A stretch of DNA of 64,000 nucleotides from Acidimicrobiaceae bacterium (lineage in GTDB: Bacteria; Actinomycetota; Acidimicrobiia; Acidimicrobiales; RAAP-2): the NCBI GenBank assembly GCA_027449885.1, contig DAIDKS010000001.1, positions 6,644 to 70,643 of the forward strand, given 5' to 3'. The notes under the pieces were generated by a model that did no database searches, was not told the origin of the DNA, and was given only the letters and a program-made list of their open reading frames with translations. The translations under genes and the position numbers were made by a program. This document shows, one piece after another, positions 31,177 through 52,608 of the stretch; within the stretch, counting starts at the first letter, position 1; each line of letters begins with the position of its first letter.

Positions 31177-31225
31177 TGGAGGCGGCGTCCGGATTCGAAC
31201 CGGAGTACGGGGCTTTGCAGGCCCC
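31177..31225 (-). repeat. att copy 1: 49-bp duplicate of tRNA-Cys from anticodon stem to CCA
   Basis: Identical to 46062-46110 and 52535-52583. Confidence 0.97.
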
Positions 31226-31232
31226 GGCAACC

Positions 31233-31358
31233 TGTGCCAGGGTGTGCCTCGCTGTGCCAGGAGTCAGTAAAACACTGGAGTTTGCCCGGATTCCTTGACA
31301 CCCCTTGGGCTCTGCTACAGCACGAAATTGACCCTTTACCGTGGCAAATGCCGTGGCA
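31233..31358 (+). repeat. Left-end motifs of element A: TGTGCC x3 at 10-bp period, and a CCGTGGCA pair
   Basis: TGTGCC at 31233, 31243, 31253; CCGTGGCA at 31339 and 31351. Confidence 0.8.
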
Positions 31359-31488
31359 GACCCAGTCCGGTCTTGGCGCTGCTGTCGGTTAGTTGTCACT
31401 GACTAACCAGACCACCGTTGACGTCCCCTGAAGTTGTGTAACTTCATGCTCGCGGAGGGCCAAGGCCGTACAGCCACAGGAGGTGGCA

Positions 31489-32592
31489 ATGCCCGACCCG
31501 AAATTCTTGAAGCCCTGGCACGGAGTTCCCCGCGAGATGATTGAGTGGCATCCCACCGTCCACGAGGACGCATGCATCGGCTGCGGCACCTGCGTGACCG
31601 GCTGTAGTCGGTTGGTCTATCGCTTCGACTACGACCGGATGAAGGCGATGGTCTTCGACCCCCTCAACTGCATGGTGGGCTGCACGACCTGCGCCAACAC
31701 ATGCCCAACTAACGCAATCGCCTTTCCACCGCTGCGCGACGTACTCGACCTTGAGCTGCGCGTGGACGTCCACCACGCAATCGAAGACGATCTAATATCG
31801 CGCCGTGATCAACTGCGGGCCGAGGACGTTACGCCACATCCCGACCGGGCGGTAGAGCTTCGCGTTGCTCACATCAACGACGCTACGCCCACCACGCGGC
31901 TCATCACACTGGTTCCGAGCAGTTCAGGTGACCACCTGGGTCAGTTCATTCCTGGGCAGTATCTCGAGGTCCAGGTGCCCGGCTCGCCATGGCTAGCCCG
32001 CGCGTACTCAATAGGCAACGCGCCCCGACCAGACGACTCGATCGAGTTGCAGATCCGACGTGTTTCGCACGGCCGATTCTCGAACTGGGCTTTCACGGAC
32101 GCGAGAGTCGGTGACTTGGTGGTCGGACGCGGGCCCGCGGGCCACTTCACGATGCGCTCACCGCTCGAGCGCCCCCTGATCTTCGTCGCGGGCGGCACGG
32201 GCTTCGCACCAGTCAAGGCGTTGATCGAGCAGCAGTTCGCTGAAGGCCATGAGCGCCGAATGCTGCTTGTCTGGGGAGTCAGCGATGCGATGGATTTCTA
32301 CGAGCTTGACATCATCGAGAACTGGCTCGACGATCATCCCCTCTTCGACTGCACACTAGCTGCGACGTCTTGGCCGGTGCAGGTGCACGTCCCGGCCAGG
32401 GCGAGCATCTTCACCGGCCTCGTCTCGGACGCGATCGCATCTTGCGGACTCGATCTGAGCGACTATGACGCTTACGTCGCTGGCCCGGCGGTGGCCATCG
32501 TGAACGTTGCCGCCTCACTTGGAGAGCGCGGTGTTGCTCACCAAAGGATCCTCGCAGACTCATTTGGCCTGCAGGCCCCTGACGTGAACTGA
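31489..32592 (+). CDS. 2x[4Fe-4S] ferredoxin fused to an FAD/NAD(P)-binding reductase
   Basis: CIGCGTCVTGC and CMVGCTTCANTCP; RAYSI, GRFS, GPAG, VAGGTGFAP, YVAGP, DSF. Confidence 0.85.
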   Translation: MPDPKFLKPWHGVPREMIEWHPTVHEDACIGCGTCVTGCSRLVYRFDYDRMKAMVFDPLNCMVGCTTCANTCPTNAIAFPPLRDVLDLELRVDVHHAIEDDLISRRDQLRAEDVTPHPDRAVELRVAHINDATPTTRLITLVPSSSGDHLGQFIPGQYLEVQVPGSPWLARAYSIGNAPRPDDSIELQIRRVSHGRFSNWAFTDARVGDLVVGRGPAGHFTMRSPLERPLIFVAGGTGFAPVKALIEQQFAEGHERRMLLVWGVSDAMDFYELDIIENWLDDHPLFDCTLAATSWPVQVHVPARASIFTGLVSDAIASCGLDLSDYDAYVAGPAVAIVNVAASLGERGVAHQRILADSFGLQAPDVN

Positions 32593-33013
32593 CGCACTCG
32601 TCCCAACGCGTCAGTTGTCGTCGAGCACGACGCACGTCACGGCACCCGCAGCGTCCCCATGGAGAAGTGACACGGCGAGTCGCCTTCCCAGCGTGCTTCA
32701 AGTACTCGATGCTTGACTCTTGACACTGGCGCTAGGGGGCGGGAGGGTGGATAATGATCAGGTGAGTGCATCGTATATCGACGATGGACGGAAGATCGTC
32801 GTCCCCCGTACTCGCGATCAGACCTGGCGAGAGTGGTCTGGGCGATCGAGTGCTACGCGCCGGAACCCCGAACACCAACCTCACGTTGGATTGGCGTGCG
32901 AACGCACGAGGTTTCGCGCGGGGAGGTGAACCTGAGGTGATCATCCGCCAAGGCTTATTGACTCCAGCAGTCACCGCCGACGTGGTCGTCGGCCTAGAGG
33001 AAGGGAGAGGGCA

Positions 33014-34264
33014 ATGAGCACCAGTCGACCGCGAGTTGTGATTCTTGGAGGGGGCTTCGCAGGCCTGCGATCCCTCTTTCGACTGCGCTCCCTGAGTCAT
33101 CGTGTCGACCTGACGCTCGTCGATCCCCGCGACTCGAGTCTGGCCCGGCCCTCACTGCCGGAAGTGGCTCTCGCCGGCAAGTCGGTCGAGCACTCGCGAT
33201 TCCCACTGCGAGGGCCAGTCACGCGCAGTGGCGCGACCTTCATACACCAGGCCGCGGAACGCGTCGAGGCCAGCGAGAGACGCGTGATCTTCCAGAACGG
33301 TGACGTCCTTCACTATGATTTTCTGCTGCTCGCCGTCGGCGCCCACAAGGACTACGACGCGATCGACGGCTTCCGGGAGTTCGGCTTCTCGCCCTGCGAC
33401 GACGAACAGGCTCCACGCCTCGCCCACGCCCTAGAGGCCTTCACGGGTGGGCCAATCGTCATCGGCTCAGCCAAGAGCAGTTGGGGCACTCGCGTGGAGG
33501 CCCCGCCGCTAGCCGCGCCGTGCGAGGGACCAGTCGCCGAGATCATGTTCATGCTCGACCATGAACTGCGTCAACGCGGACTTCGCGACAACAGCTCGAT
33601 ACGGGTCTTCAGCCCGGGGCACATCTTCTTCGAAGATGTCGGCCCACGGGTTCACGCTGACGTCGAGCCTCTTGTCAAGAGGGCTGAGATACAGGTGACG
33701 ACCGGCAAGGTGCTGCAGAGCCTCTCCGAGGGGAAGGTGCAGTTCGAAGACGGCTCGAGCTGGGACAGCGCACTCTCGATCGTGCTGCCTCCCTACGTGG
33801 GTAGTCCGCTGGTGGCGCGTTCGACGGGCCTTGGCGATGAGCGCGGCTTCGTGCCGACTGACACGACGATGCGCCACTTGGACTTCGAGCGCGTCTACGC
33901 CGCCGGCGATGGCACCTCGCTGTCGATGCCCAAGCTGGGCCACATCGCCGTGCAACAGGCCGACGTCGCAGCGGCCGCACTGGCCCAGGACCTCACCGGA
34001 CAGGGCGAGGTGCCCATCTATCGTCCAGAAGTCTTTTGCATCGCCAACCGTGGCGGGACTGAGGCGACCCTGATCTACTCGAACACTCTCTTCGGGGGCA
34101 CGACCGACCTCACCCTGGAGGGTCCGGCTGCTCATCTCATGAAGTGGGGCTTTGACGAGTACTACTTCCACACGGCCGGGCACCTTCCACCCGACATGGC
34201 CTCTGACGCTCTGGAGTTCATGCTGAAGAGCACACACGCGAGCAGCCGAGAGTCTGATGAGTAG
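33014..34264 (+). CDS. Sulfide:quinone-oxidoreductase-like flavoprotein
   Basis: ILGGGFAG, YDFLLLAVG, APCEGP and VFCIAN Cys pair, VYAAGD, PKLGHIA. Confidence 0.75.
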   Translation: MSTSRPRVVILGGGFAGLRSLFRLRSLSHRVDLTLVDPRDSSLARPSLPEVALAGKSVEHSRFPLRGPVTRSGATFIHQAAERVEASERRVIFQNGDVLHYDFLLLAVGAHKDYDAIDGFREFGFSPCDDEQAPRLAHALEAFTGGPIVIGSAKSSWGTRVEAPPLAAPCEGPVAEIMFMLDHELRQRGLRDNSSIRVFSPGHIFFEDVGPRVHADVEPLVKRAEIQVTTGKVLQSLSEGKVQFEDGSSWDSALSIVLPPYVGSPLVARSTGLGDERGFVPTDTTMRHLDFERVYAAGDGTSLSMPKLGHIAVQQADVAAAALAQDLTGQGEVPIYRPEVFCIANRGGTEATLIYSNTLFGGTTDLTLEGPAAHLMKWGFDEYYFHTAGHLPPDMASDALEFMLKSTHASSRESDE

Positions 34265-34306
34265 GCCTGGTTCCGAGCGCGGTCCTCGGCGCGAGTGCGA
34301 CGGACT

Positions 34307-36697
34307 ATGAGCACTCAGGACGGCCCTGGCCTCGAGGCCGAGGCGACACGCGACGCCGTCATGAACGAGGTCGGCCTTAGCCAAGTGGAAGCCGCCCGGC
34401 GCCTTGCCCTCGAGGGACCCAATGCGATCGCCGACGTGCGGCCACGGCGCTTCCTTGTGCTCGTCCACGAGTTCTGGGGTCTCGTTCCCTGGATGCTCGA
34501 AGCAGCCATCATCATCGACCTCTACTTGGGCAACTGGGTCCAGGCCGTCGTCATCGCTGCGCTACTCGTCTTCAACGCCGGTCTCGGCTTCTTCCAGCAG
34601 TCTCGGTCGCAGCGGGCTCTAGCGCTACTGCGCGAGAGACTCGAGATCACAGCACGGGTTCGCCGGGACGGCGTCTGGCAAGAGATCGCGGCGAACCAAC
34701 TGGTCAGCGGGGATCTGGTGCACCTGCGTGTCGGCGACATCGTCCCGGCCGACATCGTCGTCTCCAGCGGCTTCGCTCGCATCGACCAGTCCCAGTTGAC
34801 CGGTGAGTCGACCCCCGTCGAAGCGAGTGCCGGCACAGTGGTCTACGCCGGCTCACACGTGATCCACGGCGAGGTGGGAGGTTCGGTAACGGCGACCGGC
34901 CCACGTTCCTTCTACGGTAGAGCCGCCGAACTGGTGCGCGTGGCCGCTGCACCTCGCCGGCTGCAGATCCTGATCCTGCGGATCGCCCGCTATCTAGCCG
35001 TCGTTGTTGTAGCGCTGGCTCTCGCGGTCTTCCTGTACTGGGGCCTGACAGGTCGCTCGATCGTCGACATGCTGCCCTTCGGACTGATGCTGCTGGTCGC
35101 CTCGGTGCCGGTCGCCCTGCCCGCCATGTTCACCATGTCCGCCACTCTCGGCGCCCAGGGCCTAGCGAAGAATGGGATCCTGGTGACCCGTCTCTCGACA
35201 ATCGAGGACGCGGCCAGCATGGACGTCATCTGCCTGGACAAGACGGGCACCGTGACCGAGAACCACCTCCGCGTCGAGTCAATCCAGACCGTGGGTCCGA
35301 CCGAGGCCGATGAGGTGCTGCGTTGGGCGGCCCTCGCCTGTGACGAGGCCACCCAGGACCCAATCGATCTCGCCATCTTGGCGCGAGCACGCGAGCGCGG
35401 CGTGCGCGTCGACACGCCTCTGGAGTCCTTCATCCCCTTTGACCCCGTGACCAAGCGCTCCGAGGCACTCTGGCTCGAGCACGGTGAGGCGCGCCGGTCT
35501 GTCAAGGGCGCCCCCGCCGTGGTGGCCAGCCTCACTGGCGAGTCGGCGGAGCGCGTCGAGGCCGCAGCAGAGGAGATGTCGGCACGCGGTTTGCGCGTGC
35601 TGGCGATCGCCGCGGGTACCCCCACGCAGCTCGACGTCGTCGGATTCGTGGCCCTCGCCGATCCGCCACGCCCGGAGTCGAGTGAGGTGATCGCGCACCT
35701 GCGTGGCGCCGGTGTGAGAACGCTGCTCGTCACCGGCGACTCCGCCGCCACCGCGCACGCGATCGCCCAACAGATCGGCATCTCCGGCCCAGTGGCCCCG
35801 CCGGGAACACTGCGAGAGGGACTGAGCCCAGTGGACATCGAGGGCTTCGAGGTGTTCGCGGGTGCCCTGCCCCAGGACAAGTTCTTCCTCGTCGAAGCCT
35901 TGCAGAGGGCGGGACACGTGGTCGGCATGACCGGCGATGGGGTCAACGACGCGCCGGCATTGCGCCAGGCCGACGTGGGCATCGCTGTCGCTGGCGCCAC
36001 CGACGTGGCCCGCGCGGCGGCCAGTCTTGTCCTGACTCGTCCTGGACTCACCGAGCTCATGATGGCGGTGCAGGGCAGTCGGCGCATCTACCAGCGGATG
36101 AAGACCTTCGTCGTCACGATGCTCGCCCGCAAGATTGGCATTCCCGTCTTCCTCGCCGGCGGAGTCGTGCTGGCGAAGACTTTCGTCACGACGCCCACGC
36201 TGATCGTGCTTCTCATGTTCGGTACCGACATCGCGACGATGACGCTCTCGACCGACCAGGTGGTCGCGTCCCCCGGACCGGATCGCTGGTCAGTCTCCTC
36301 GCTCGTGTCCACGGGCGCGATCATTGGTGCCTTGCTCGTGGGCATCAGCACGGCCGTGTACCTGAGTCGGTACATCTTCTCCCTGACGCTGGGCCAGACG
36401 CAGACTCTCGTCTTCGTCTGGTTGGTCTTCGGCGCTGCCCAGGGGATCCTCTACCTCATGCGCAACCCGAAGTGGTTCTGGACTCGCCCGTACCCCAGCC
36501 GGATGCTGGCGCTGAGCACCGTCCTCGATGTCGTGCTCGTGGGCGTCATCGCCTGGGCGGGTTGGCTCACCGCGCCCCTCTCCCCGGTGCTGATCGCCGC
36601 GACACTGGGCCTCGCTGTGATCTTTCTGCTGATCGCCGACGTGGTGAAGGTCTCCCTAGCAAGCGCCAATGCGCGCCCGGCGCGTCACCACAACTAA
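34307..36697 (+). CDS. P-type ATPase, P3A proton-exporting type
   Basis: PWMLEAA, LTGES, VPVALPAM, DKTGT, QDPID, FDPVTKR, KGAP, TGD, MTGDGVNDAPAL, TM6 Asp in GTDIA. Confidence 0.85.
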   Translation: MSTQDGPGLEAEATRDAVMNEVGLSQVEAARRLALEGPNAIADVRPRRFLVLVHEFWGLVPWMLEAAIIIDLYLGNWVQAVVIAALLVFNAGLGFFQQSRSQRALALLRERLEITARVRRDGVWQEIAANQLVSGDLVHLRVGDIVPADIVVSSGFARIDQSQLTGESTPVEASAGTVVYAGSHVIHGEVGGSVTATGPRSFYGRAAELVRVAAAPRRLQILILRIARYLAVVVVALALAVFLYWGLTGRSIVDMLPFGLMLLVASVPVALPAMFTMSATLGAQGLAKNGILVTRLSTIEDAASMDVICLDKTGTVTENHLRVESIQTVGPTEADEVLRWAALACDEATQDPIDLAILARARERGVRVDTPLESFIPFDPVTKRSEALWLEHGEARRSVKGAPAVVASLTGESAERVEAAAEEMSARGLRVLAIAAGTPTQLDVVGFVALADPPRPESSEVIAHLRGAGVRTLLVTGDSAATAHAIAQQIGISGPVAPPGTLREGLSPVDIEGFEVFAGALPQDKFFLVEALQRAGHVVGMTGDGVNDAPALRQADVGIAVAGATDVARAAASLVLTRPGLTELMMAVQGSRRIYQRMKTFVVTMLARKIGIPVFLAGGVVLAKTFVTTPTLIVLLMFGTDIATMTLSTDQVVASPGPDRWSVSSLVSTGAIIGALLVGISTAVYLSRYIFSLTLGQTQTLVFVWLVFGAAQGILYLMRNPKWFWTRPYPSRMLALSTVLDVVLVGVIAWAGWLTAPLSPVLIAATLGLAVIFLLIADVVKVSLASANARPARHHN

Positions 36698-36954
36698 ACG
36701 TCTCCCTCGCGACTCGCCCGGGACCTTCGGTGGCGAGCTGTCGAGTGTCACCAATCGCCGCTCCACCGACTTCGGTGCGACTCGTGACCCAACGTCGCCC
36801 CGCCGTTGAACGCCACGCGCCGGTCAACACGCCCGAGCGCCGGTCGGGACTTTCGACCCTAGTGGCGATCCATCCATACATCTACATTGATCAATAGAGC
36901 AATCTAGAGGCCAGACGGGGGGCGGGCCTCGACCGACGGGATGGGAGGCTTCCC

Positions 36955-38181
36955 ATGAGCAGGATCGACCCTCGAGCTCAGTACGAGATCATCGGCGTGG
37001 AGGTGGTCGAGGAGGTGGACCTCGACGGCGACGGCTCGGTCAGCGAGCGCATCGCCCAACCCGGCGACTCGAGCGGCGCGCCGCTCAGCGGGCTGCGAGG
37101 ATTCCATCCCGGCTGGTTCGGCGCGGTCATGGGCACGGCGATCATCGGTGTGGCCGCCTCCCTGAATCCCGGCCACCTCCCGTCGCTCGCCTCGAGCGCG
37201 CGCGTGACCGGCCAGATCATGACCATCGTCTCCTTCGCACTCGCCCTCGGGTTGGTCATCCCTTACCTCGGGCGCATATTCCTTCACCCCGAGGCTGCTC
37301 TGGCGGACCTGCGTAGTCCGAGCGTGGGTGCGTTGTATGGCACTCTCCCGGGCGGGATCCTCGTGCTCGCCGCGACCTTCGCGTCCGTGGGCCCGACCTG
37401 GTTCGCCGCTTCAACCGTGCACACGACCGTCGCCTGGCTCGACTGGGTGGGCATCCCGCTCGCCCTCGGCGTGAGCGTCCTGTTCGCCTTCCTCCTCTTC
37501 GTGCGCGCCGAGCTCGATCCCGAGGCGGTGAACGGCAGCTGGTTCATCCCGCCCGTCGTCAACATCGTCGTGCCGCTGGTGCTCACCCCCCTCGTGCCCG
37601 GCGTCTCGCCGACCTCGGCGCGCACCCTGCTCTTCCTCGGCTACGGGTTCTGGGGCATGGGCTTCATCCTCTACCTCGTGCTGCTGACCATGCTCTACCA
37701 GCGCCTGACGATGCACGCCCTGCCCCACGCCGGTCTGGCACCCTCGCTGTGGATCGGGCTCGGACCCATTGGCGTCGGCAGCCTCGCGCTACTCAGGCTC
37801 GCCGCGGTGAGCGCGCCCGTGTTCGGGATCTACGCGACGAGCGTGCAACTCGCCTCCAAGATCGTCGCGACCATGCTCTGGGGATTCGGCGCGTGGTGGC
37901 TGCTCGCGGCCGTCGCGCTCCTCGCCCACTACCTTCGTTCGGGTGCTCTGCCCTACGGCGTGGGTTGGTGGGGCTTCACCTTCCCACTCGGTGCCTTCAC
38001 GGTGTCGACGCTGGCGCTGGCCGGAGCCTGGAGCCTCACCAGCCTCCAGTGGGTGGGAGCGGGGCTGTTCGTGCTACTGGTCGCCTTCTGGGTGCTCGTA
38101 GCCGTCGGCACACTTCGTTCGCTCGGCGCCCAGCGCCGCAGCGCACTGTCCTCGCCAACGATTTCGTTCTCACACCGATAG
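36955..38181 (+). CDS. TDT/SLAC1-family anion transporter (tellurite/dicarboxylate/sulfite)
   Basis: PGWFGAVMGT, WFIPPV, WIGLGPIG, WWGFTFPLG. Confidence 0.88.
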   Translation: MSRIDPRAQYEIIGVEVVEEVDLDGDGSVSERIAQPGDSSGAPLSGLRGFHPGWFGAVMGTAIIGVAASLNPGHLPSLASSARVTGQIMTIVSFALALGLVIPYLGRIFLHPEAALADLRSPSVGALYGTLPGGILVLAATFASVGPTWFAASTVHTTVAWLDWVGIPLALGVSVLFAFLLFVRAELDPEAVNGSWFIPPVVNIVVPLVLTPLVPGVSPTSARTLLFLGYGFWGMGFILYLVLLTMLYQRLTMHALPHAGLAPSLWIGLGPIGVGSLALLRLAAVSAPVFGIYATSVQLASKIVATMLWGFGAWWLLAAVALLAHYLRSGALPYGVGWWGFTFPLGAFTVSTLALAGAWSLTSLQWVGAGLFVLLVAFWVLVAVGTLRSLGAQRRSALSSPTISFSHR

Positions 38182-38189
38182 GAGACACC

Positions 38190-38570
38190 ATGAGCCAGAA
38201 CACCGCCAGTCCCGTTGACGTGGAGACGATCCTCGCGGGCATGTGGGCCTCGATGGGCGAGGTCCCGTCCGCCATCCAGAAGGCCGCCGCGGTGGACGTA
38301 GCCATGGTGGCCGAGCAAGTGCGCTCCAGCGCCTTCGCCATGCCCCCTGAGAACGGCTCGCTGAGCCCGGAGACCCGCACGCTTATCTACCTCGCCGTCG
38401 CCCTGGCGACCTCCAACGCCGCCTGCACGCGCGCCATGGTGAACAAGGCGCGCGTGCAGTCCATCGAGTCAGACAAGCTGCTCGAGGCGCTGCACATCGC
38501 TCGCTACGCCATGGCCACCCAGGTCATCGGCAACGCCGAGCCCGTCTACGACCTCATCAGCGAGCGCTGA
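38190..38570 (+). CDS. CMD/AhpD-like protein
   Basis: LSPETRTLIYLAVALA...CTRAM...EALHIA; AGGAGA RBS. Confidence 0.7.
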   Translation: MSQNTASPVDVETILAGMWASMGEVPSAIQKAAAVDVAMVAEQVRSSAFAMPPENGSLSPETRTLIYLAVALATSNAACTRAMVNKARVQSIESDKLLEALHIARYAMATQVIGNAEPVYDLISER

Positions 38571-38711
38571 GTCGGTGCCAGGGCCCGCGTCGCCAGCCAT
38601 GGTGTCACGTCGTGCCGCCGCCGCAGACGCCCGGGGCCCATCGTGCGTTGAGGATCACGATCGATCGGCGACGAGCGGCACCCGGCGCACGCCCAAGGAG
38701 AGGAGAGAGAC

Positions 38712-39389
38712 ATGCTGACTCTGGCTGCGCGACTCGTCCGAGCAACGCTTCGGCGCGCCGGTCGCGCGCGTCTCGAGTCCCGCCAGTTGCTCTCGATGAG
38801 CATTCTGGCGGGCGTCGCGATGCTCATCCCCTGGACGTCGTTCCTCGCCGTGACGCTGCCCTCGCACTTTCGCGCCCACAACTGGAGTGTGACCTGGGTC
38901 GGCTTCGACGCGGCCCTGATGCTGGTGCTCATCGCCACCGCCTGGGCGGCGTGGTTCCGCCGACAGGTACTCGCCGCCCTGTCCGTGGTTGCGGCCACGA
39001 TGCTGCTGTGTGATGCGTGGTTCGACGTCAACACCGCATGGGGAACCCACGGAGTGAAGGTGAGCATCGCCACGGCGCTGGCTGGCAACATCCCGCTGTC
39101 TCTCGCGCTCCTCTGGCTGACGAGGCGGATTCTGCTCGGCACCGCTGCGGTCGTGGCCGTTGCCACGCACCGAACCGAGGTTCCGCACCGGGCGATCGAT
39201 GTTGCCATCCCCGTTCTCGGCACACGTCGCGGCGCGCACGCCCGCCCGGCGCGCGAGCTTCAGTCGCGGTCGAGCGTGACTCCCAGCTCGGCGAGCAACG
39301 CCCTCACGCGCGCATCCACGTCGTCCACGATGCGCCGCACGGTCTCGAGGTCCTGCCCGGCGGGATCCTCCACCTCCCAGTCGAGATAG
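38712..39389 (+). CDS. Hypothetical membrane protein; 3' end overlaps arsC
   Basis: AGGAGAG RBS; four TMs, WVGFD and CDAWFDV. Confidence 0.6.
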   Translation: MLTLAARLVRATLRRAGRARLESRQLLSMSILAGVAMLIPWTSFLAVTLPSHFRAHNWSVTWVGFDAALMLVLIATAWAAWFRRQVLAALSVVAATMLLCDAWFDVNTAWGTHGVKVSIATALAGNIPLSLALLWLTRRILLGTAAVVAVATHRTEVPHRAIDVAIPVLGTRRGAHARPARELQSRSSVTPSSASNALTRASTSSTMRRTVSRSCPAGSSTSQSR

Positions 39390-39721
39390 CGCTTACCGGG
39401 AAAGAAGGGGCACGTTTCCCCGCAGCCCATGGTCACGACGACGTCAGCGTCCTCGACCAGGTCAGAGGTCAGCAGCGTGGGCACCTCGTCGTCGGTACGC
39501 AGTCCGCGCTCGGCGAGCACCGCGGCCACCAGCGGGTTGACGCCCGAGCCCGGCTCCGAACCCGCTGAGGCGACGCCGACACGTCCACGCGCATAGTGCT
39601 CGGTGAGGATCTTGGCTGCGACCGAACGACCGGAGTTGTGGATGCAGGCATAGAGCACGACGGGAAGCCGCGCTGGCACACCCTCTGTGCCAGCTGCGCG
39701 CGACTGGATCGGTTCACTCAT
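39260..39721 (-). CDS. arsC: Arsenate reductase, LMW-PTPase fold
   Basis: CIHNSGRS, SAGSEP, TMGCGETCP, WEVEDPAG. Confidence 0.92.
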   Translation of the reverse strand: MSEPIQSRAAGTEGVPARLPVVLYACIHNSGRSVAAKILTEHYARGRVGVASAGSEPGSGVNPLVAAVLAERGLRTDDEVPTLLTSDLVEDADVVVTMGCGETCPFFPGKRYLDWEVEDPAGQDLETVRRIVDDVDARVRALLAELGVTLDRD

Positions 39722-41348: not shown

Positions 41349-41393
41349 ACCGCAGAGCGCGCTCGCGAACACCTTTGATCGCTACCATGAGCG

Positions 41394-41747: not shown

Positions 41748-41767
41748 GCGACGGCGACGCCACGTCG

Positions 41768-41811: not shown

Positions 41812-41835
41812 ACCGATTACCACCGGAGGAGCCCA

Positions 41836-44389: not shown

Positions 44390-44443
44390 GACGGATTCAG
44401 CGCTGTAGCCGCGAGAGCATCACCAATAGGAATAGGAGAATCC

Positions 44444-44800
44444 ATGTCCAAGGTCGTAGTCCATATCTTTCACGGCGACGATGACTCGCTGTCCGCTGGC
44501 TCGCACGTCAGCGAGCGCATCCGTCAGGTCGCCGCTGAACAGGGCGTCTCGCTCGAGGTCTTCTGCTTTGGTCCGGCCCAAGGCGCCCTGAGCGCGTCGG
44601 GTGACTCCGTCGTTAGATCCGAGTACAACCAGCAGATAGACGAACTCATCGACGCGGGAGTGCCCGTAGGCGCCTGTCTCAACGCTGCGCGCGCGGCCGG
44701 GACCGAGGAAGCACTCTCGGCCCGCGGCATCACCCTGCAGTTCGCTCGTGACGCCTTCGTGCGCTATGCACTTGAGGGCGCCACCGTGATCAATTTCTAG
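44444..44800 (+). CDS. DsrE/F-like sulfur-relay protein
   Basis: KVVVHIF, EVFCFGPA, GACLNAA, EGATVINF. Confidence 0.65.
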   Translation: MSKVVVHIFHGDDDSLSAGSHVSERIRQVAAEQGVSLEVFCFGPAQGALSASGDSVVRSEYNQQIDELIDAGVPVGACLNAARAAGTEEALSARGITLQFARDAFVRYALEGATVINF

Positions 44801-44804
44801 ATTC

Positions 44805-45593
44805 GTGGCACTCGAAGATCAGGCCTCGGAGGAGCCGAGGAGCGACGAGGTGACCTGGTCTCTCGCAGCGTGGCTGGAGCGGGCGACCTTGCCGAGTTTC
44901 TCGGTCCTCGACACTCGCTCGGCCCAGGGCCGACTCGACCCGAGGGTGAAGACCGTTCGCGTGGCGGACCTCATCCTGGCGCACGGGCACCCTTGTGACG
45001 GACTCTTGCGCGGCGTCTGGGCGATGCGGGCCCTGGCCGACGTCGCCTTCGGAGATGACCCTTTCGACCGCAGCGACCTGCTCGTGGTCTCCAAGAATTC
45101 GCCGTGCCTCGGTGACGTGGCGGCCTACCTTACCGGCGCTCGCGTGCGCTTCGGCACGCACCGTCTCGACGACTCGCTGGGCGTGGGCTTTCAGGTTCAG
45201 CGCCTATCGAGCGGCGAGGCCTGGGAAGTTCGCGAGGAGCCGGGGTTCTTTCCCGCCGAGATCAGCGCCTGGGAGTCGAGCCTGCTAAGCGAGACGTATT
45301 CGGAGTCCGAGAAGCGCGAGATCCTCGCGGTTCACGAATCCGCTCAATGGAACTGGGTCCGCGACGTCTTGTTTCAGAGCGCGCCGAGCGAGCACTATCA
45401 CGCGAGACGCCTCGAGAGCTTCGATCCCCCCGCGCCGCTCCACGAAGCCCGGCGCACCGACACCGTGAACCGCTCAGTGCCTCCTCCTCTCGAGGTTCCG
45501 AGTCCGGACGATCCAGGTGTTCACATACTGCCCAGCAAGCCCGCCGAGTCCCGCTGGCAGCACACGTACGATATTGGGCCGAGCGCGTCGTAG
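44805..45593 (+). CDS. FmdE-family protein
   Basis: AHGHPCDGLLRG and NSPCLGD His/Cys motifs. Confidence 0.65.
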   Translation: MALEDQASEEPRSDEVTWSLAAWLERATLPSFSVLDTRSAQGRLDPRVKTVRVADLILAHGHPCDGLLRGVWAMRALADVAFGDDPFDRSDLLVVSKNSPCLGDVAAYLTGARVRFGTHRLDDSLGVGFQVQRLSSGEAWEVREEPGFFPAEISAWESSLLSETYSESEKREILAVHESAQWNWVRDVLFQSAPSEHYHARRLESFDPPAPLHEARRTDTVNRSVPPPLEVPSPDDPGVHILPSKPAESRWQHTYDIGPSAS

Positions 45594-45827
45594 GCGTTCT
45601 AGAGTCACGTGCCAGCGGGTTGGCGCTCCGGGATCATGCGCTGGCGGTGCACTGACCGGTCCCCGATTGCTGGTCCACTCACGATGCGAGGAACTGCTTC
45701 TGTCGGGTGAGCCACTGATCAACGAACACGGCTGGGGTCTTTCACCCATGAGTGCTGTGGGCTCGGTTGATGTCGTCGTCGATGCCGCCGTGTTGTCCGC
45801 TCCTGACGACCCGAATTGTGCCGAATA

Positions 45828-46061
45828 CCGTGGCAGGGTCAACGGCAAGAAGTCCACACGCCTGTGTTTGCTTGACGCTTCGCTCACAAGAAAGGGGCTT
45901 GCAGGGCCCCGTACTTGTGTGTCACTCAGTCGAAACTTCTCCATCGCTAAGCACCACAAATGGGGCGTCATGAGGGTAGTCCCATCGCTCGGGTGCGAGC
46001 CTTCTCGCCTGGTCCGCGCGAAAATGCCGTGGCAACTACCGAGGCAGCGCTGCCTCGATCC
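45828..46061 (+). repeat. Right end of element A, homologous to 52300-52534
   Basis: CCGTGGCA at 45828 and 46027, CCGAGGCA at 46039; core-like GGGGC-TTGCAGG-GCCCCGTACT at 45894-45915. Confidence 0.88.
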
Positions 46062-46110
46062 TGGAGGCGGCGTCCGGATTCGAACCGGAGTACGGGGCTT
46101 TGCAGGCCCC
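46062..46110 (-). repeat. att copy 2 (junction between elements A and B)
   Basis: Identical 49 bp of the tRNA-Cys 3' part. Confidence 0.97.
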
Positions 46111-46242
46111 GACAACGTGGGCCAGGGCGCGCCTGACTGTGCCAGGAGTCCTTGAAACACTGATGATTGTCCCACTTTCCTGACACCACTTGGTATCTGC
46201 CCCGCACGGATTACGTCAGTTACCGTGGCAATTACCGTGGCA
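46111..46242 (+). repeat. Left end of element B, homologous to 31226-31358
   Basis: TGGGCC, CGCGCC, TGTGCC at 46118, 46128, 46138; CCGTGGCA at 46223 and 46235. Confidence 0.85.
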
Positions 46243-46579
46243 GCCTTCCTTACGGTTTGTCATCATTCTGCAATATCCCCAATAGCATCGCTTGCTGACG
46301 ACGTCAGCGACGCTCGCAAAGAGGGCCGGCCGCGCCTCTGATTCCGACTCAGACGACCTTCGGCACCTCGTTCGGTTTCTTTGCCAACCGAGTTGGCATG
46401 AGACGCTACCGACGACCAGTGACACCAAATGCTCCGGCGACAGTGCTCACGCTGCCGCCATGAGGGGACCGGCAGGCCGCCCAGCAGGACCGCTGCGCCA
46501 ACGGAGAGGCCGTCATAGATTCCATGCCCTCAGTGCCAAACCCCGCCACCAGGTCGGCACGAGCAGGGATAATTGGGGC

Positions 46580-46966
46580 ATGGCTGGCACCGTGCACGAC
46601 ACTCACGACCTCGCCGAGCAGGTACATGCCGCCTTCACGGCTCGGGACCTCCAGGCGTTCGGCGTTCTGCTCAGCAGCGATGTTCGCTGGGGTGACGACG
46701 ATCTCCCTCGACGGTGCCGGAGCCGTTCGGACGTGCTCGCGACGTTCCGTCGGCTCATGGATGAAGGCATGGAAGCCGACGTCACCGAATGCGTCGCAGG
46801 AACGAATGGACTCCTCTGCGGTCTTGCCGTGACGCTCCCGGGTCGGGGCAACCATCCAAGCGAGCGGAACCTCTTCCACGTCTACCTCGTGCGCGACAAC
46901 CGCATTGTCGAGATTCAGCCTTACGACGATCGAACGTCGGCTGCTATGGCAGCAGGCATCGCGTAA
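46580..46966 (+). CDS. SnoaL/NTF2-like protein
   Basis: AFTARDLQAFGVLLSSDVRW...VYLVRDNRIVEIQPY. Confidence 0.7.
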   Translation: MAGTVHDTHDLAEQVHAAFTARDLQAFGVLLSSDVRWGDDDLPRRCRSRSDVLATFRRLMDEGMEADVTECVAGTNGLLCGLAVTLPGRGNHPSERNLFHVYLVRDNRIVEIQPYDDRTSAAMAAGIA

Positions 46967-46993
46967 GGCACCAACGGTGAAGGGAGCCGACGC

Positions 46994-47215
46994 ATGTCTG
47001 CGGTGACCATCTACGGCGTGTGCGCCGTGACCTTCATGATGGCGATGTATGCCCTTGAGCGTCGGGGCCGGAGGTTCATCCTGGCGTTCGCGCTCGGCTG
47101 TCTCTTGTCGAGCGCCTACGGCTTCCTTTCTGGAGCATGGCCATTTGGCGTCGTCGAGTTCATTTGGTCCGGCGTTGCCATCCGGCGGTATCAGACCAGC
47201 GGCCTTCACCGGTAA
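46994..47215 (+). CDS. Small three-TM hypothetical protein
   Basis: AAGGGAG RBS; hydrophobic; AYGFLSGAWPFGVVE. Confidence 0.65.
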   Translation: MSAVTIYGVCAVTFMMAMYALERRGRRFILAFALGCLLSSAYGFLSGAWPFGVVEFIWSGVAIRRYQTSGLHR

Positions 47216-47252
47216 GCGGCACTCGGGTCCAGCGGGACGGATTTTCAGCTAA

Positions 47253-47900
47253 CTAATGCCCACGTATGGCGCCCGCTGCGCGGAGTAGCTGACGCATGGT
47301 ACTGACAGGGACGCTGTTGCGGTACACGACGTGTCCTGCTGCGTCGATGAGGAAGTAGTCGTCCGGAGTGCCGCTGGGATCGTAGGAAAGCGACAGCGAT
47401 TCCGACGCAGTTCCCCACGTCCAGCCTGGGGAACTGAGGGTGCCACCGGCTGAGCTTCCGAATGCTGCAAGCTCGGTGAGCCCCGAGCGTCCCGGCGGGA
47501 ACGCGCCCCAGAGGCCGAGGGTCACGACATGAATGCCATCTCGATGGAGGGCTGTGAAGTGCGAAGCGACCGCGGGGATGCTCGCTGCGCAGCTCGCACA
47601 CCCGCCAGCCACGAACCACAGCAAGATCGGTTGACCACGAAGTGACGTCACGGTCACGCTCTCGCCCGCGAGCGTGGTGAACGGCCCGTTCGGTGCGATC
47701 AATGGGGTGATCGATTTCGCCTGACGAGCCCTGGCGACGGCTTGCGCCGCTGGTCTGCCGTGGTCCATGTGAATGAAACCGACAGTGCCAGCCGCTGCCA
47801 CGATGGCAGCGATGAGCAGATAGCGAATCACGCGCCGTCCTCGATTCGGCTGCGTCGCGCTGAGAGATTCGGCATCGTCCGAGGCAAGGTCTGTGGTCAT
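47253..47900 (-). CDS. Membrane-anchored thioredoxin-fold (redoxin) protein
   Basis: TM anchor; LLWFVAGGCASC; YFLIDAAGHV. Confidence 0.8.
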   Translation of the reverse strand: MTTDLASDDAESLSATQPNRGRRVIRYLLIAAIVAAAGTVGFIHMDHGRPAAQAVARARQAKSITPLIAPNGPFTTLAGESVTVTSLRGQPILLWFVAGGCASCAASIPAVASHFTALHRDGIHVVTLGLWGAFPPGRSGLTELAAFGSSAGGTLSSPGWTWGTASESLSLSYDPSGTPDDYFLIDAAGHVVYRNSVPVSTMRQLLRAAGAIRGH

Positions 47901-48526
47901 TTCAGCCGTCCAATTGCTGCAAGAAGCTGGGGCATGGTTGCCCCTGGCGAGCTATTCACGTAGGCCACGTGTCCACCAGCATCGAGCAGGTAGTAGATGT
48001 CGAGGTAACTCTGGGGATCGTAGGTTCGGGTGAGCGCGGGAGAGGAAGTTCCGAACGTCCAGTCCGGACTCTTGGCCCCAGGTCCGGCCAGTACATGGGC
48101 GAATTTCGTCATCGACGGGCCAGACTGGCCGAGGTCGTCATACAACTCCACTTCCTCGACGTGCACCCCGTCAGAGCGCATCGTCGCTATCTGCTGCGCC
48201 ATGGCTTGGGTGCCCGCCTGGCATGACGAACACCAAGTAGACACGAACCACAACAACGTCGGCTGGCCGCGAAGTGACGACACTTCTACCCTCGTGCCCG
48301 CGAGGGTCGTGAATGTCCCGTTCGGGGCAAGCTGGCCGACGGCCGGCGTCGCGCTCGCGGTTCCTGACGGCCGATTGGCAAAATGCAGGACAAGCACGAT
48401 GCCTGCGATGACGATGACCGCCACGCCTATGCCGCCAAACCAGCGTCGTCGTTTGCGCGCGACGGCTTCGGCCTTGCGTCGTGCCCGATTGGACATCCCC
48501 CGGGGTGGCTGTGTCGTCTTGCTCAT
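47897..48526 (-). CDS. Membrane-anchored thioredoxin-fold (redoxin) protein, paralog
   Basis: TM anchor; LLWFVSTWCSSC; YYLLDAGGHV. Confidence 0.8.
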   Translation of the reverse strand: MSKTTQPPRGMSNRARRKAEAVARKRRRWFGGIGVAVIVIAGIVLVLHFANRPSGTASATPAVGQLAPNGTFTTLAGTRVEVSSLRGQPTLLWFVSTWCSSCQAGTQAMAQQIATMRSDGVHVEEVELYDDLGQSGPSMTKFAHVLAGPGAKSPDWTFGTSSPALTRTYDPQSYLDIYYLLDAGGHVAYVNSSPGATMPQLLAAIGRLK

Positions 48527-49176
48527 CGGGAACCGCTGTCTTCAGACTGCAGGGCGCCAGGCGACCGGGCAGCATCGCAGTCCGGACCGATATCGCATCC
48601 TGGTCCGACAAGACACGAGGCTGCGGCCACCTTTCGAAGTCCCCACCATGAGGAGAGGACGAGCAGCGCGAGGCTTCCTCCAAGAAACTCCGACTGGTGC
48701 GTGGCAAAGAAGTGCTGAAGGGTGCCAGTCGTGCCATACAGGCCGACTCCCGAAACGCCGACAAACGACAGCACCGTCGGGATGATCGGGGTGCAGCACA
48801 GGAAGCTCGGCAACAGGCTTCCGACAAATGCGAGACCGCCTGCAATTCCACTAGATGCACGAGCCCGGACGATCCGGCGCATGGCGTGGACCTGCACGCT
48901 GACGACGACACCCATCCCCGCTGCGAGCACGATCGCCCAGATGAGGAGGTACGCATTGAGGTACTGCCAGTTCTGGAACGAGACGCGCTGGGTGTAGTCG
49001 AATGGCAGTAGCACGCTGTAGAAGAAGGCGACAACGAGCGTTGCGACAGCGAACACGCTCAGGCTCACCCGGTCCCTGACGATGTCTCCCACGACGCGCG
49101 GGACAGATCGTCGTGGGGACAGTTGGACGAACTGCGCTGCTTCCTGCTTCATATCCGCAAGCTCCGTACTCACCAC
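48523..49176 (-). CDS. Four-TM membrane protein with an intramembrane CC pair
   Basis: SFLCCTP within a TM; Cys-rich C-terminus. Confidence 0.65.
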   Translation of the reverse strand: MVSTELADMKQEAAQFVQLSPRRSVPRVVGDIVRDRVSLSVFAVATLVVAFFYSVLLPFDYTQRVSFQNWQYLNAYLLIWAIVLAAGMGVVVSVQVHAMRRIVRARASSGIAGGLAFVGSLLPSFLCCTPIIPTVLSFVGVSGVGLYGTTGTLQHFFATHQSEFLGGSLALLVLSSWWGLRKVAAASCLVGPGCDIGPDCDAARSPGALQSEDSGSR

Positions 49177-49460
49177 CTCGTCTCCCTGACCGGAGGCTTG
49201 GTCGCGATCGGCTCACAGCACGTCCCTTTCGATCGCGATCGGCGGCGGAGAACGATGACGGCGATGCTGCCGATGACAGCGACAAGAGCGCCGATGACGA
49301 GTCCCCTGGCGAGTGCGCTCGCGGCCGCAAGCACCGCGATGATGAACGGGCCGCCGCAACACAGCACAGGAAGAAGGAAGAGCAGTCCTGCCCACGCACC
49401 AGTTCCTCCCTGTGGCTGTTCGCTTTGCTGGCCTGACTGGAGCTGAGGCTGCTCGCTCAT
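49170..49460 (-). CDS. Small MerF/MerT/MerE-like mercury transporter
   Basis: VLCCGGP in TM1, second TM, cytoplasmic TCCEP; overlaps the merA stop. Confidence 0.65.
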   Translation of the reverse strand: MSEQPQLQSGQQSEQPQGGTGAWAGLLFLLPVLCCGGPFIIAVLAAASALARGLVIGALVAVIGSIAVIVLRRRSRSKGTCCEPIATKPPVRETRW

Positions 49461-50908
49461 GCTGCACAACACGACAATGCAGCGACGTCCCGGGAGAACG
49501 ACTGCGCGGTGAGTTTGATCGCTTCTGCCATCGTGAGGTACGGCGTCCACACGGTGGCAAGCTGTTCGACAGTGAAGTTCGCTTCCAAGGCGTAGACCCC
49601 GGCCAGGATGGCGTCTGCTGCACCGTCAGCAAGGAGGTGGATGCCGAGGACACGGCCGGTGCCCTGCTCAGCAACAATCTTTGCGACCCCGCGAGTATCG
49701 CGATTGACGATGGCACGAGGCACATTCGCGAGCGGGAGCACTCGGCACTCACAGGAGATGCCGCTCCGGACGGCCTCCTCGTCCGTCATGCCTACGGATG
49801 CAATCTGGGGCGAGGTGAAGGTGACCCGCGGGAGCGTGCGGTAGTCCACGCGGCGATGGGAGCCCGACAGGGCATTGTCTGCGACAATCCCGCCGTGCAG
49901 CCCCGCGACGTAGACGAACTGGGGATGTCCTGTGACGTCCCCGGCTGCGAAGATGCGCGGATTCGTCGTACGCAGTTCGTCGTCAACGATGACCTCGCCA
50001 CGCGATCCGACGCGGACACCGACAGCATCGAGTCCAAGGCCGCTCGTGTTCGGACGGCGGCCAGTCGCAACGAGCAGGGCTTCAGCACGAAGTGACCGGG
50101 ACCCGCTGGAAGTGTCGATTCCGACGGCGACGACCCCGTTCTCCTGAAGCACCTTCGTTACAGTCACGCCAGCTTCGACAGCGATCCCCTCGTCGTCGAA
50201 GATGCGCGTGAGTGCCTCGGACACCTCTGGTTCCTCGAACGGGGCGATGCGGGAAATGGCCTCCACGATGGTGACCTTCGAGCCGAGGCGGCCGAAGAGC
50301 TGCCCCTGTTCGAGACCGACGGCATTGCCCCCGATGACAATGAGCGACTCCGGGACATGGTCCAGCTCCATGGCCGTCGTCGATGTCAGGTAGTGGACCT
50401 GCTCAAGACCCGGGATGGGAGGTACCCAGGGTGCAGCACCGGTAGCGATGACGTAGTGACCGGCAACGACCGTGGCCCCGTCTACGGTCAACGTGCCATT
50501 GGCACTGAAGCGACCGTGTCCGTGGATGATGTCGAAGCCATATAGGTCGGCGAGGTTCTCGTACTTCTCGTGGCGCAGCGCCTCGACGATCGCACCCTTG
50601 CCCGCGATGAGAGCCGACATGTCCACGGCCTGGGCGCCTGTCTCGATACCGGGAAATCGCCCGGAAACAGCCGTGTGACGCACCTCGGCGGCGGCCAACA
50701 AGGCCTTAGACGGGACGCATCCGACATTCACACAGGTGCCGCCGACGAGTCCCTCCTCGACCATGACGACTGACGCGCCTATTCGCTTCGCGGCAATGGC
50801 CGTTGCGAAGGCGGCGCTCCCCGACCCGACAATCGCTAGGTCGTACCGTGCGTGACTCGAGGCGTCCTCACGCCTCTTCTCCGGGCCTCCATCGCAGCAC
50901 TCCATCAT
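49457..50908 (-). CDS. merA: Mercuric reductase lacking an NmerA domain
   Basis: GSGSAA, GGTCVNVGCVPSK, QFVYVA, PYLTMAE, C-terminal LSCCAA. Confidence 0.95.
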   Translation of the reverse strand: MMECCDGGPEKRREDASSHARYDLAIVGSGSAAFATAIAAKRIGASVVMVEEGLVGGTCVNVGCVPSKALLAAAEVRHTAVSGRFPGIETGAQAVDMSALIAGKGAIVEALRHEKYENLADLYGFDIIHGHGRFSANGTLTVDGATVVAGHYVIATGAAPWVPPIPGLEQVHYLTSTTAMELDHVPESLIVIGGNAVGLEQGQLFGRLGSKVTIVEAISRIAPFEEPEVSEALTRIFDDEGIAVEAGVTVTKVLQENGVVAVGIDTSSGSRSLRAEALLVATGRRPNTSGLGLDAVGVRVGSRGEVIVDDELRTTNPRIFAAGDVTGHPQFVYVAGLHGGIVADNALSGSHRRVDYRTLPRVTFTSPQIASVGMTDEEAVRSGISCECRVLPLANVPRAIVNRDTRGVAKIVAEQGTGRVLGIHLLADGAADAILAGVYALEANFTVEQLATVWTPYLTMAEAIKLTAQSFSRDVAALSCCAA

Positions 50909-50973
50909 CGGCTCCTTCCAGGCTGAATTTGCGATACCCCACTGGCCCAGATGCTCCGGTGGGCCACGCATCC

Positions 50974-51005
50974 AGGATAAACCCTCCAGTGTGATGGAGA
51001 GTCAA
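50974..51005 (-). promoter_or_regulatory. MerR-type promoter/operator
   Basis: TTGACT-N20-TATCCT on the minus strand with CTCCA-N6-TGGAG dyad in the long spacer. Confidence 0.8.
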
Positions 51006-51021
51006 GAGGTATATTTGAGAA

Positions 51022-51432
51022 ATGCGCATCGGGGAGTTGGCACGACAGACAGAGGTTCCGATCAAGACGATCCGGTACTACGAAGAGATCGGAGTGCTCC
51101 CCAGCCCCACGCGAGCGCCCTCCGGGTACCGGGAGTACGATGCCGGAGTCATTGATCGGCTGCGCTTTATCCGCACAAGCCAAACGGTGGGCTTTACGCT
51201 TGGAGAGATCCGCGAGATCGTCGCTTACCGCGACCGCGGGGAGGTCCCGTGCGTCCACGTACTCGACCTGCTACGCCGTCACCGCGAGGACTGCGCCAAG
51301 AAGATCGCCGATTTGCAGGAGGCCGAACGAGCGCTGGATACGCTCGTTGAGCGAGCTACGAAACTGCGCGAAGAGGACTGCTCGGCCGAGACTGTCTGTC
51401 ACCTCATTCCACGGGCAGTGGAACGGCTTTAG
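51022..51432 (+). CDS. merR: MerR-family metal-responsive regulator
   Basis: MRIGELA...TIRYYEEIG, GYREY, VPC and CSAETVC cysteines; divergent from merA. Confidence 0.9.
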   Translation: MRIGELARQTEVPIKTIRYYEEIGVLPSPTRAPSGYREYDAGVIDRLRFIRTSQTVGFTLGEIREIVAYRDRGEVPCVHVLDLLRRHREDCAKKIADLQEAERALDTLVERATKLREEDCSAETVCHLIPRAVERL

Positions 51433-51759
51433 AAACACCTTGCGATTGGTCGATGGGCGGCAGGAACGGATATACAGTCTCCCGGATTCGGTCCAGGTTC
51501 CGTCGAGACGGTGTTGGGGTCAGCGACACGGCGATGGGGTGATTGAACCGAGGTGGAGTCCGCGGGTGGACCGCGCCCGACCAAGGAGAAGACGCAATCG
51601 GCGCTGATGTTGCGCAGTCAGGAGATGACGCTGAAGGAGTTGGCGCGTCAAGTCTCCTGCGCTACCTCTTTCGTCTAGATCCCGCCGCGGCGCTCGTAGA
51701 CTCCAGGACCGCCACCGAAGGAGCGGCCGCCGCGAGAGCGTCAGCTCACGATTGGAAAG

Positions 51760-52140
51760 CATGGGCAGATCCTCACGGTTCTGGCGCGAAAGGAGTCACT
51801 CAGCGCCATCGCCCGTTCACTCGGACGGTGGCCATCGACGGTGGCCCTGCACGGTCGCGGCCATCGGTAGGCGTAGCGACGATTCCCTCCACGATGCTCA
51901 GCGACGCGCCCAGTGCCAGGCTCAACGTCCCAAGAGAGCCAAACTCTGCGCCGAGCAGTTGTCGAAGGACGTGTCAAGGCGGCTGGAGACGCTGCGAAGT
52001 CCCGAGAAGATCTCGGCGCCGCTGCCAGCGGCCGACCGGCGACGAATCCATGCGAGCATCAACGGGCGTCCGCGTGCCACCCTTGGCCACGTGACACCGT
52101 TGGAAAGGTTCGCCAACCTCGTTGCGCTCACTGTTAAACC
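51760..52140 (+). pseudogene. IS30-family transposase remnant (frameshifted, catalytic core deleted)
   Basis: SLSAIARSLGRWPSTV HTH in one frame; AQRPKRAKL...SPEKIS joined to the C-terminal INGRPRATLGHVTPLERF...VALTV in another. Confidence 0.7.
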
Positions 52141-52299
52141 GCCTCCATCGAACTAAGAGTGATTCAAACCTCTACCTCAGAGACATCGTGGCGAAGGACC
52201 TTCGAGCGCGCTTGGCTCGAGGATCCGACCCGCCCGCTCTCTTCACCATCGGCACGCGAATGGCGTCCTCGACCGGGCCCGTGAAATCAGCGTCGAATG

Positions 52300-52534
52300 C
52301 CGTGGCACGTTGGGAGGCAAGACATCCAAGACCCATTTGTTTGCTTGGCTTCTCGTCCAAAAGTACGGGGCTTGCAGGGCCCCGTACTCGCGTGCCAATC
52401 AGTCGAAGCACTCCCATCGCTGACCACATCAGGAAGAACCACGCAGAGGCCATCCCATGGTTACGGTCTCAGCCTTCTCTCCTGGTCCGCCAGAGAATAC
52501 CGTGGCAACTACCGAGGCAGCACCAACCCGATCC
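52300..52534 (+). repeat. Right end of element B
   Basis: CCGTGGCA at 52300 and 52500, CCGAGGCA at 52512; AGTACGGGGC-TTGCAGG-GCCCCGTACT at 52362-52388. Confidence 0.88.
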
Positions 52535-52608
52535 TGGAGGCGGCGTCCGGATTCGAACCGGAGTACGGGGCTTTGCAGGCCCCTGCCTAACCACTCGGCC
52601 ACGCCGCC
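52535..52608 (-). tRNA. tRNA-Cys(GCA)
   Basis: GGCGGCGTGGCCGAGTGGTTAGGCA-GGGGC-CTGCAAA-GCCCC-GTACTCCGGTTCGAATCCGGACGCCGCCTCCA. Confidence 0.98.

Follow-up and report, generated by a model that had tools for sequence, protein, structure and literature searches.

Tandem integrase-free cassettes with conserved ends and unrelated cargo at a tRNA-Cys gene, probably mobilised in trans

We analysed a 64-kb stretch of DNA from an Acidimicrobiaceae bacterium (the window; C1:6644-70643 of a 1.98-Mb metagenome-assembled genome (MAG), G000, of 49 contigs and 84% completeness), where two gene cassettes, designated E1 and E2, are stacked at a tRNA-Cys gene. The intact gene, tRNA-Cys(GCA), occupies 52535-52608 on the minus strand; it was called by ARAGORN, obtained 63 bits against Rfam and is the sole Rfam-backed tRNA-Cys in the window. 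The 3' half of this gene, a 49-bp core that reaches from the CCA terminus as far as the 5' side of the anticodon stem, was observed three times with 0 mismatches. Core copy 1 (31177-31225, minus strand; identical to 52535-52583) is a displaced 3' half that forms the outer boundary of E1, core copy 2 (46062-46110, minus strand) forms the E1/E2 junction, and core copy 3 is the 3' 49 bp of the intact gene itself. From core to core, E1 measures 14,885 bp and E2 6,473 bp. The three identical segments, starting at 31177, 46062 and 52535, and their spacings had been described in a first-pass annotation made from the sequence alone, and both were confirmed exactly. A fourth copy of the core was absent from the window, even when up to 14 mismatches were allowed. 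The G+C content of the island is 0.62-0.70, compared with 0.70-0.75 in the flanks. ARAGORN also called a 77-nt 'tRNA-Cys' at 31177-31253, with the anticodon at position 36; we rejected this call, which had no Rfam match at E<=1 and consists of the displaced 3' half followed by GTGCCA repeats of the E1 left end. The right neighbour of the intact tRNA-Cys is dinB, and the flank on this side is syntenic in at least eight genomes of the genus.

Next, we compared the ends of the two elements. The left ends (E1, 31226-31365; E2, 46111-46250; both on the plus strand) begin directly past core copies 1 and 2, respectively, and are colinear over ~135-140 bp with 74-84% identity. The right ends (E1, 45790-46061; E2, 52265-52534; plus strand) are colinear over ~230-270 bp ahead of the core with 73-76% identity. 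In the E1 left end, three GTGCCA repeats in 10-bp phase (31234-31259) are followed by a conserved box, GTGCCAGGAGTC-N4-AAACACT (31254-31276), and by an arm pair made of two CCGTGGCA motifs in 12-bp phase (31339-31358). The corresponding features of E2 lie at 46119-46144 (10-bp repeats, degenerate), 46139-46161 (box) and 46223-46242 (two CCGTGGCA motifs). In the right ends, a distal arm site (E1, 45828-45847; E2, 52300-52319), a palindrome and a proximal arm pair follow one another towards the core; the proximal pair is CCGTGGCA/CCGAGGCA at 46027-46046 in E1 and lies at 52500-52519 in E2. Core copy 2 together with both of its neighbours mimics an attP site, in the order right end, core, left end. 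When the whole 1.98-Mb genome was scanned, the paired motif CCGTGGCA-N4-CCGNGGCA occurred at the four element ends only, and therefore the ends are shared far beyond chance. The earlier observation that the two elements share colinear, diverged ends and no cargo was borne out.

The palindrome of the right ends is core-like in E1 (GAAAGGGGCTTGCAGGGCCCCGTAC, 45890-45914) and perfect in E2 (GTACGGGGC-TTGCAGG-GCCCCGTAC, 52363-52387). The latter sequence is a near-copy of the anticodon arm and is found in the right ends of one subfamily; core-like palindromes of this type were present in 6 of 193 genomes of the genus, each time beside tRNA-Cys. On the minus strand the palindrome is terminator-like and lies downstream of the tRNA, clearly so in E1 and more weakly in E2. 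It could act either as a second core-type site or as a replacement terminator. As regards small RNAs in the element ends, Rfam returned the tRNA alone.

The cargo of E1, an ars/acid-stress element, is unrelated to that of E2, a mer element. Pfam matches in E1 (31483-45593) comprised an arsenic module (LMW-phosphatase ArsC, ACR3, two ArsR, an ArsD-CMD fusion and ArsA), redox and transport functions (ferredoxin/FAD reductase, SQR-like flavoprotein, P-type ATPase, SLAC1/TehA channel), a further CMD protein, a DsrE-like protein and an FmdE-like protein. In E2 (46292-51432), Pfam matches and gene calls on a contig of the Logan collection indicated a SnoaL-like protein, two redoxin/AhpC-like proteins, unknown membrane open reading frames (ORFs), MerA and MerR. 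The arsenic and mercury modules proposed earlier were therefore both recovered, and both elements are operons of several genes that bring their own regulators (ArsR in E1, MerR in E2). An exact look-up of MerA gave a single match, a 6,474-bp Logan contig. The island was present in three runs (X1-X3) of one mine-drainage study, and arsenic and mercury cargo in such a community fits local adaptation. Between merR and the E2 right end, ~830 bp (51433-52260) contain no gene called on the Logan contig; the ORFs of this segment had no Pfam or PHROG match and were not recognisable as a recombinase, and the segment could be decayed coding sequence.

To follow the family beyond this locus, we searched 193 genomes of the genus, where absence from incomplete MAGs is no proof, together with GTDB species genomes, JGI metagenome contigs, IMG/VR, INPHARED phages and PLSDB plasmids. 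The core pattern was present in 155 of the 193 genomes, with two or more copies in 22, and retrieval of the loci confirmed junction-type cores in 16 genomes; genomes with a single core were without right-end features. Searches with the right end found relatives in two genomes of the genus. In one (G344), a 3.8-kb element carrying TetR, RibD_C and AbiEi/AbiEii lies between two perfect cores, and its left neighbour is the right end of another element, so that this locus is also a tandem. In the other (G179), a 2.9-kb element encodes an Ig-domain protein and its distal core is decayed. Ends of the E1/E2 type adjoin tRNA-Cys in G424 as well.

Ten further complete, core-flanked elements of 1.0-5.9 kb were recovered from other species of the genus. 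Their largest ORFs encode methyltransferases, an MFS pump, an erythromycin esterase, an M50 peptidase and ABC transporters, and also two two-component systems, AbiEii, a BNR protein, a peptidase A4 surface protein and an alpha/beta hydrolase; no recombinase was found among these largest ORFs. A first metagenome pattern, built on the right junction of the CCGTGGCA class, gave 0 matches. The second pattern scan returned 25 metagenome contigs with ~20 true left junctions, and these contigs contained eight more complete elements of 1.5-5.7 kb (GNAT, AbiEii, GrpB, DUF5343, ABC). Altogether, tRNA-Cys elements of the E1/E2 kind occur in at least 16 of the 193 genomes and on ~20 metagenome contigs, amounting to ~22 complete elements (1-15 kb) and ~15 partial ones, all of them integrase-free. 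Some as small as 1.5-2.9 kb have one or two cargo genes between full ends. The search for such ends elsewhere had been suggested as a way of finding both more cassettes and an integrase-bearing master element; the former were found and the latter was not, and in none of the ~22 complete and ~15 partial elements did homologous ends lie beside an integrase of their own.

As a separate observation on the cargo, several tRNA-Cys cassettes that are otherwise unrelated carry type IV toxin-antitoxin pairs of AbiEi/AbiEii (L031 3958-5614; L061 5674-6639; L113 1438-2400; L126 4595-5557), which fits a stabilising or defence module travelling with the family.

The ends have a common architecture across the family. 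In nearly every element, irrespective of subfamily, three GTGCCA repeats in 10-bp tandem phase start within ~6 bp of the core in the left end. An 8-9-mer pair with 12-bp spacing follows at +110 to +122 in 15 of 15 non-redundant elements. The right end usually repeats the element's own left 8-9-mer as a 12-bp pair ~35 bp ahead of the core, and in the subfamily of the window this 8-9-mer recurs once more at about -234. We distinguished four arm-motif classes, CCGTGGCA, CAGGGGCA, ACTGTGGTA and TAACTGCCA, the class being the same on both arms of one element. When left and right ends were shuffled in 10,000 permutations, 0 gave an arm 9-mer match as good as that observed. Because elements of the same class are related, this match measures the linkage of the two arms and not independent events of co-evolution. 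In G344, G424, G179, G412 and G446, exact arm pairs were found at tRNA-Cys only, and matches with one mismatch were at control level. Repeat pairs that are conserved in position, matched on both arms and different between classes fit functional att arms better than decay.

We then looked for the recombinase. Six-frame searches with PF00589 and PF00239 detected no tyrosine or serine recombinase in the window; the whole genome has 8 PF00589 and 3 PF00239 matches, all outside it, and the nearest PF00589 match is a Xer-like gene ~53 kb off. With the genome's 8 tyrosine recombinases as tblastn queries, the best match in the window had E = 0.04. A tyrosine-recombinase hidden Markov model (HMM), built locally from 16 sequences and run on six-frame translations, gave no match in the window at E<=10; in a control where one integrase family was left out of the model, all seven omitted members were still detected at E<=1e-15. 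PHROGs found nothing phage-like among the unassigned ORFs of the window. In E1 and E2, integrase and transfer genes were absent by all of these searches and by Pfam on the major ORFs, which upholds the earlier statement that the elements lack tyrosine and serine recombinases and phage genes, and the six-frame scan revealed no integrase remnant in the window either. The same holds for the wider family: in ten cassette-bearing genomes the tRNA-Cys contig regions had no PF00589 match, and an HMM scan of 64 loci found no tyrosine recombinase save known tRNA-Val integrases and one Xer gene. Islands at tRNA-Val, tRNA-Gly and tRNA-Glu in the same genus retain an integrase beside the tRNA.

One of these islands is informative about the kind of enzyme that the cassettes may use. 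An integrase-bearing tRNA-Val island in G438 has identical 12-bp pairs at -90 and +100 and 10-bp repeats at +31. As this island follows the same arm logic, the enzyme that the cassettes lack is, by analogy, most likely of the same general kind, a heterobivalent tyrosine integrase.

The considerations above lead us to propose that E1 and E2 are non-autonomous cassettes, resembling cis-mobilizable elements (CIMEs), that are moved in trans by class-specific tyrosine integrases residing outside these assemblies. We assign this reading a probability of roughly 0.6. It builds on direct observations: how the elements are laid out, that they form a family, that integrases are missing from them and that their two arms carry matching motifs. 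Mobilisation in trans is something we infer only, as our searches yielded neither a helper integrase nor a circular junction nor an empty site that matched.

In the scheme we envisage, a circle bearing an attP of ~450 bp (right end, 49-bp tRNA-Cys 3' half, left end) would recombine with the tRNA-Cys gene. The 3' half borne by the element would rebuild the tRNA and the displaced half would mark the far end. The crossover would likely fall in the anticodon stem-loop, GGGGC-TTTGCAG-GCCCC. The class-specific 8-9-mers, in 12-bp-phased pairs at about -234, -35 and +112, are predicted sites of a heterobivalent tyrosine integrase, and the core-adjacent GTGCCA repeats (three copies) are predicted sites of a shared accessory factor. 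The integrase would act in trans, from a helper element or from an unlinked gene outside these assemblies. Cassettes would stack up as further ones insert, one after another, at the regenerated tRNA or at an att site that is already resident. In this scheme we infer which enzyme acts, where the crossover takes place, that the cassettes still move today and in which order they arrived.

Several results weigh against this reading. No ends beside an integrase or in attP form were found in the MAG, where element ends occur in the island alone, in the 193 genus genomes or in the GTDB species genomes, and neither a cognate integrase nor attP-form ends turned up in the JGI metagenome contigs, IMG/VR, INPHARED or PLSDB. 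When genome contigs were scanned with the arm-pair pattern, a G344 contig was the sole true match and the other 18 arose by chance; in IMG/VR, two patterns gave 0 matches and 2 chance matches inside coding repeats; and blastn of the attP-like junction against INPHARED and PLSDB matched through the tRNA part alone. Xer-type enzymes are the sole tyrosine recombinases common to every cassette-bearing genome checked. The left flank of the window adjoins tRNA-Cys in no other genome, its homologues lying on other contigs in every genome, and therefore no matched empty site is available. There is no direct sign of excision. The Logan contigs (k=31), from which our depth data were drawn, end inside the cores (46082-46085 and 52555), as is expected of a 49-bp repeat at k=31. 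The depths of the E1 and E2 contigs were nearly equal in the three runs (33/32, 260/255 and 392/395), so that nothing shows independent movement of the two. Finally, contigs identical to the island (36001-52555; 0-1 differences) had depths of 33-392x, compared with only 3-9x for those identical to the right flank (52676-56000), and a right-flank variant that is ~8% diverged reached 300-447x in two runs. Depth taken from contigs is a weak measure. The values may mean that a relative of higher abundance also has the island, which would hint at recent transfer, or that the MAG contig is a mosaic of strains joined via the tRNA; with either reading of the depths, E1 and E2 are still bounded by tRNA-Cys cores. 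The k=31 contigs of another run, X4, do not cover E1 and E2, which carries no weight either way.

We also considered a broader and more tentative version of the proposal, which we regard as possible rather than likely. Here, the tRNA-Cys of this genus would be a dedicated gene-capture site, where miniature integrase-less cassettes with full arms circulate among species and are inserted, stacked and exchanged by unlinked, class-specific integrases. If true, this would constitute a tRNA-anchored functional counterpart of the integron, operating on lambda-type att sites, and would go beyond occasional decay products.

Among the alternatives, we rate as unlikely that the cassettes are dead remnants, that is, once-autonomous islands that lost their integrases by deletion, are now fixed and keep similar ends by recent common descent. 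CIMEs are described in the literature as arising by deletion of the integrase (PMC5704250), our searches turned up no helper, and left cores with 1-7 mismatches in several genomes suggest ageing, as might the ~830 bp without a called gene beside the E2 right end. However, no integrase or remnant of one was detected in any of the complete or partial elements, and the tRNA-Val, tRNA-Gly and tRNA-Glu islands of the same genus keep theirs. Matching pairs are conserved in position on both arms across four diverged classes, elements of 1.5-2.9 kb hold one or two genes between full ends, and the three cores of the window are identical, all of which argues against simple decay.

Another explanation is that a host recombinase, either a Xer-type enzyme as used by integrative mobile elements exploiting Xer (IMEX) or an unrecognised enzyme of the genus, serves tRNA-Cys as a chromosomal gene-capture platform. 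The ubiquity of Xer-type enzymes noted above would agree with this, as would G179, which has only Xer-like genes and a tRNA-Glu integrase, and the GTGCCA repeats, which are shared between arm classes as a site for a host factor would be. On the other hand, arm motifs that differ between classes imply that there are several cognate specificities, and one enzyme does not account for these; the target is a tRNA anticodon arm and not a dif site; and no recombinase is conserved beside tRNA-Cys, where the syntenic neighbour is dinB. To our knowledge, Xer proteins also have no arm-binding domain. We consider a host enzyme improbable. Equally improbable is an assembly mosaic, in which strain contigs were joined through the identical tRNA or 49-bp core and the E1-E2 order or the flank attachment is false: it could draw on the contig breaks in the cores, on the depths of the island contigs (33, 260 and 392x) relative to the exact and the diverged right flank and on the lack of synteny of the left flank with tRNA-Cys elsewhere, but E1 and E2 have near-equal depth in three runs, as linked DNA would, breaks in the cores at k=31 are uninformative on the original assembly, tandem or single cassettes recur at tRNA-Cys in independent assemblies, and E1 and E2 would keep their tRNA-Cys core boundaries even in a mosaic.

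The proposal of trans-mobilised cassettes has its closest described concept in the CIME with tandem accretion (PMC5704250). CIMEs have been described as decay products beside related integrative and conjugative elements (ICEs) or integrative and mobilizable elements (IMEs), and examples of tandem accretion, where the target is the 3' end of a tRNA or protein gene, are ICESt1/ICESt3 of Streptococcus and the toxicogenic region TR1/TR2 of Streptomyces (PMC5704250). Like CIMEs, our cassettes are bounded by att-like sites at the 3' end of the target gene, lack integration and transfer genes and occur in tandem, and they would be expected to move only when another element supplies the integrase. Unlike CIMEs, they have no related autonomous parent that could be seen in the 193 genomes or the metagenome contigs, and they are numerous and in many cases very small (1.5-6 kb), with a conserved architecture and four classes of arm motif. 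Tandem, ssrA-specific islands of adaptive genes at one small-RNA gene have been described in Dehalococcoides, where a site-specific mechanism of mobilisation shared by the whole genus has been proposed; the target there is the tmRNA gene, whereas the present cassettes use tRNA-Cys (PMC3146451).

The first-pass annotation had likened the stacking to an integron array. This comparison holds for the modular cargo stacked at one site, for cassettes without a recombinase and for an enzyme that would be unlinked. It fails in other respects: there is no intI, attI or Pc by the array and no PF00589 match in the window; the cassettes hold several genes, among them regulators of their own (ArsR, MerR, TetR), and lack folded sites of the attC type; and their ends are direct-repeat duplex arms of ~135 and ~250 bp, in which the only palindrome is the near-copy of the anticodon arm. 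IMEX elements and pdif modules depend on Xer and use dif-like 28-bp sites. They resemble the cassettes as recombinase-free modules whose enzyme is encoded elsewhere and which can stack in tandem, and differ in that the site here is a tRNA-Cys half with long arms and no dif-like sequence was identified, the core not having been scored against the dif of this genome. In classical tRNA islands (those of the Islander type, and the actinomycete ICEs pSAM2 and SLP1), a tyrosine integrase usually lies beside the tRNA. The cassettes share with them the direct repeat of the 3' part, the regenerated tRNA, a core over the anticodon arm and repeat-rich arms, but the integrase beside the tRNA is absent in every cassette examined.

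If the cassettes are mobile, modules for metal resistance, antibiotic modification, toxin-antitoxin functions and regulation could be swapped at a safe chromosomal site without a recombinase of their own. Island finders that require an integrase, and most surveys of the mobilome, would overlook such gene flow. The family also provides a ready test system, with attP arms of ~450 bp in four motif classes, for candidate integrases.

A number of candidate helpers were tried and rejected. A split integrase of the SSV type was discounted, as the ORFs across right end, core and left end had no Pfam or PHROG match and the ends are too short. The integrase at C47:133650-134789 and its relatives adjoin tRNA-Val, and their cores and arms are not those of the cassettes. 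The genes at C1:112057 and C47:17834 are Xer-like. A family of integrases of 367-386 aa belongs to tRNA-Gly and tRNA-Glu, has TGGGCA/GGTCAC arms and is absent from G000. Members of this last family (L083-L087, L092 and L093, from G424, G179, G344, G481, G311 and G412) are 57-79% identical to one another and convergent to tRNA-Gly(CCC/TCC) or tRNA-Glu, with arm repeats of four TGGGCA and three GGTCAC in 10-11-bp phasing; at three loci 0.9-3.3 kb separate the integrase from the tRNA, to which the arm repeats remain adjacent.

The window also contains a tRNA-Val(GAC) at 16433-16509 that is identical over 77/77 positions to the copy on C47 (G000:C47:132259-134972; L073 7259-9972), where a 380-aa tyrosine integrase and a 2.6-kb core-flanked island follow. 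The two contigs may represent strain variants of one locus, with and without the island. In G438, the integrase island homologous to that at the C47 tRNA-Val is located 7 kb from tRNA-Cys. Elsewhere in the MAG, at G000:C25:19831-26923 (L090) and with no tRNA nearby, three tyrosine-recombinase genes encoding 421, 499 and 539 aa are clustered, an arrangement that resembles a recombinase-in-trio element.

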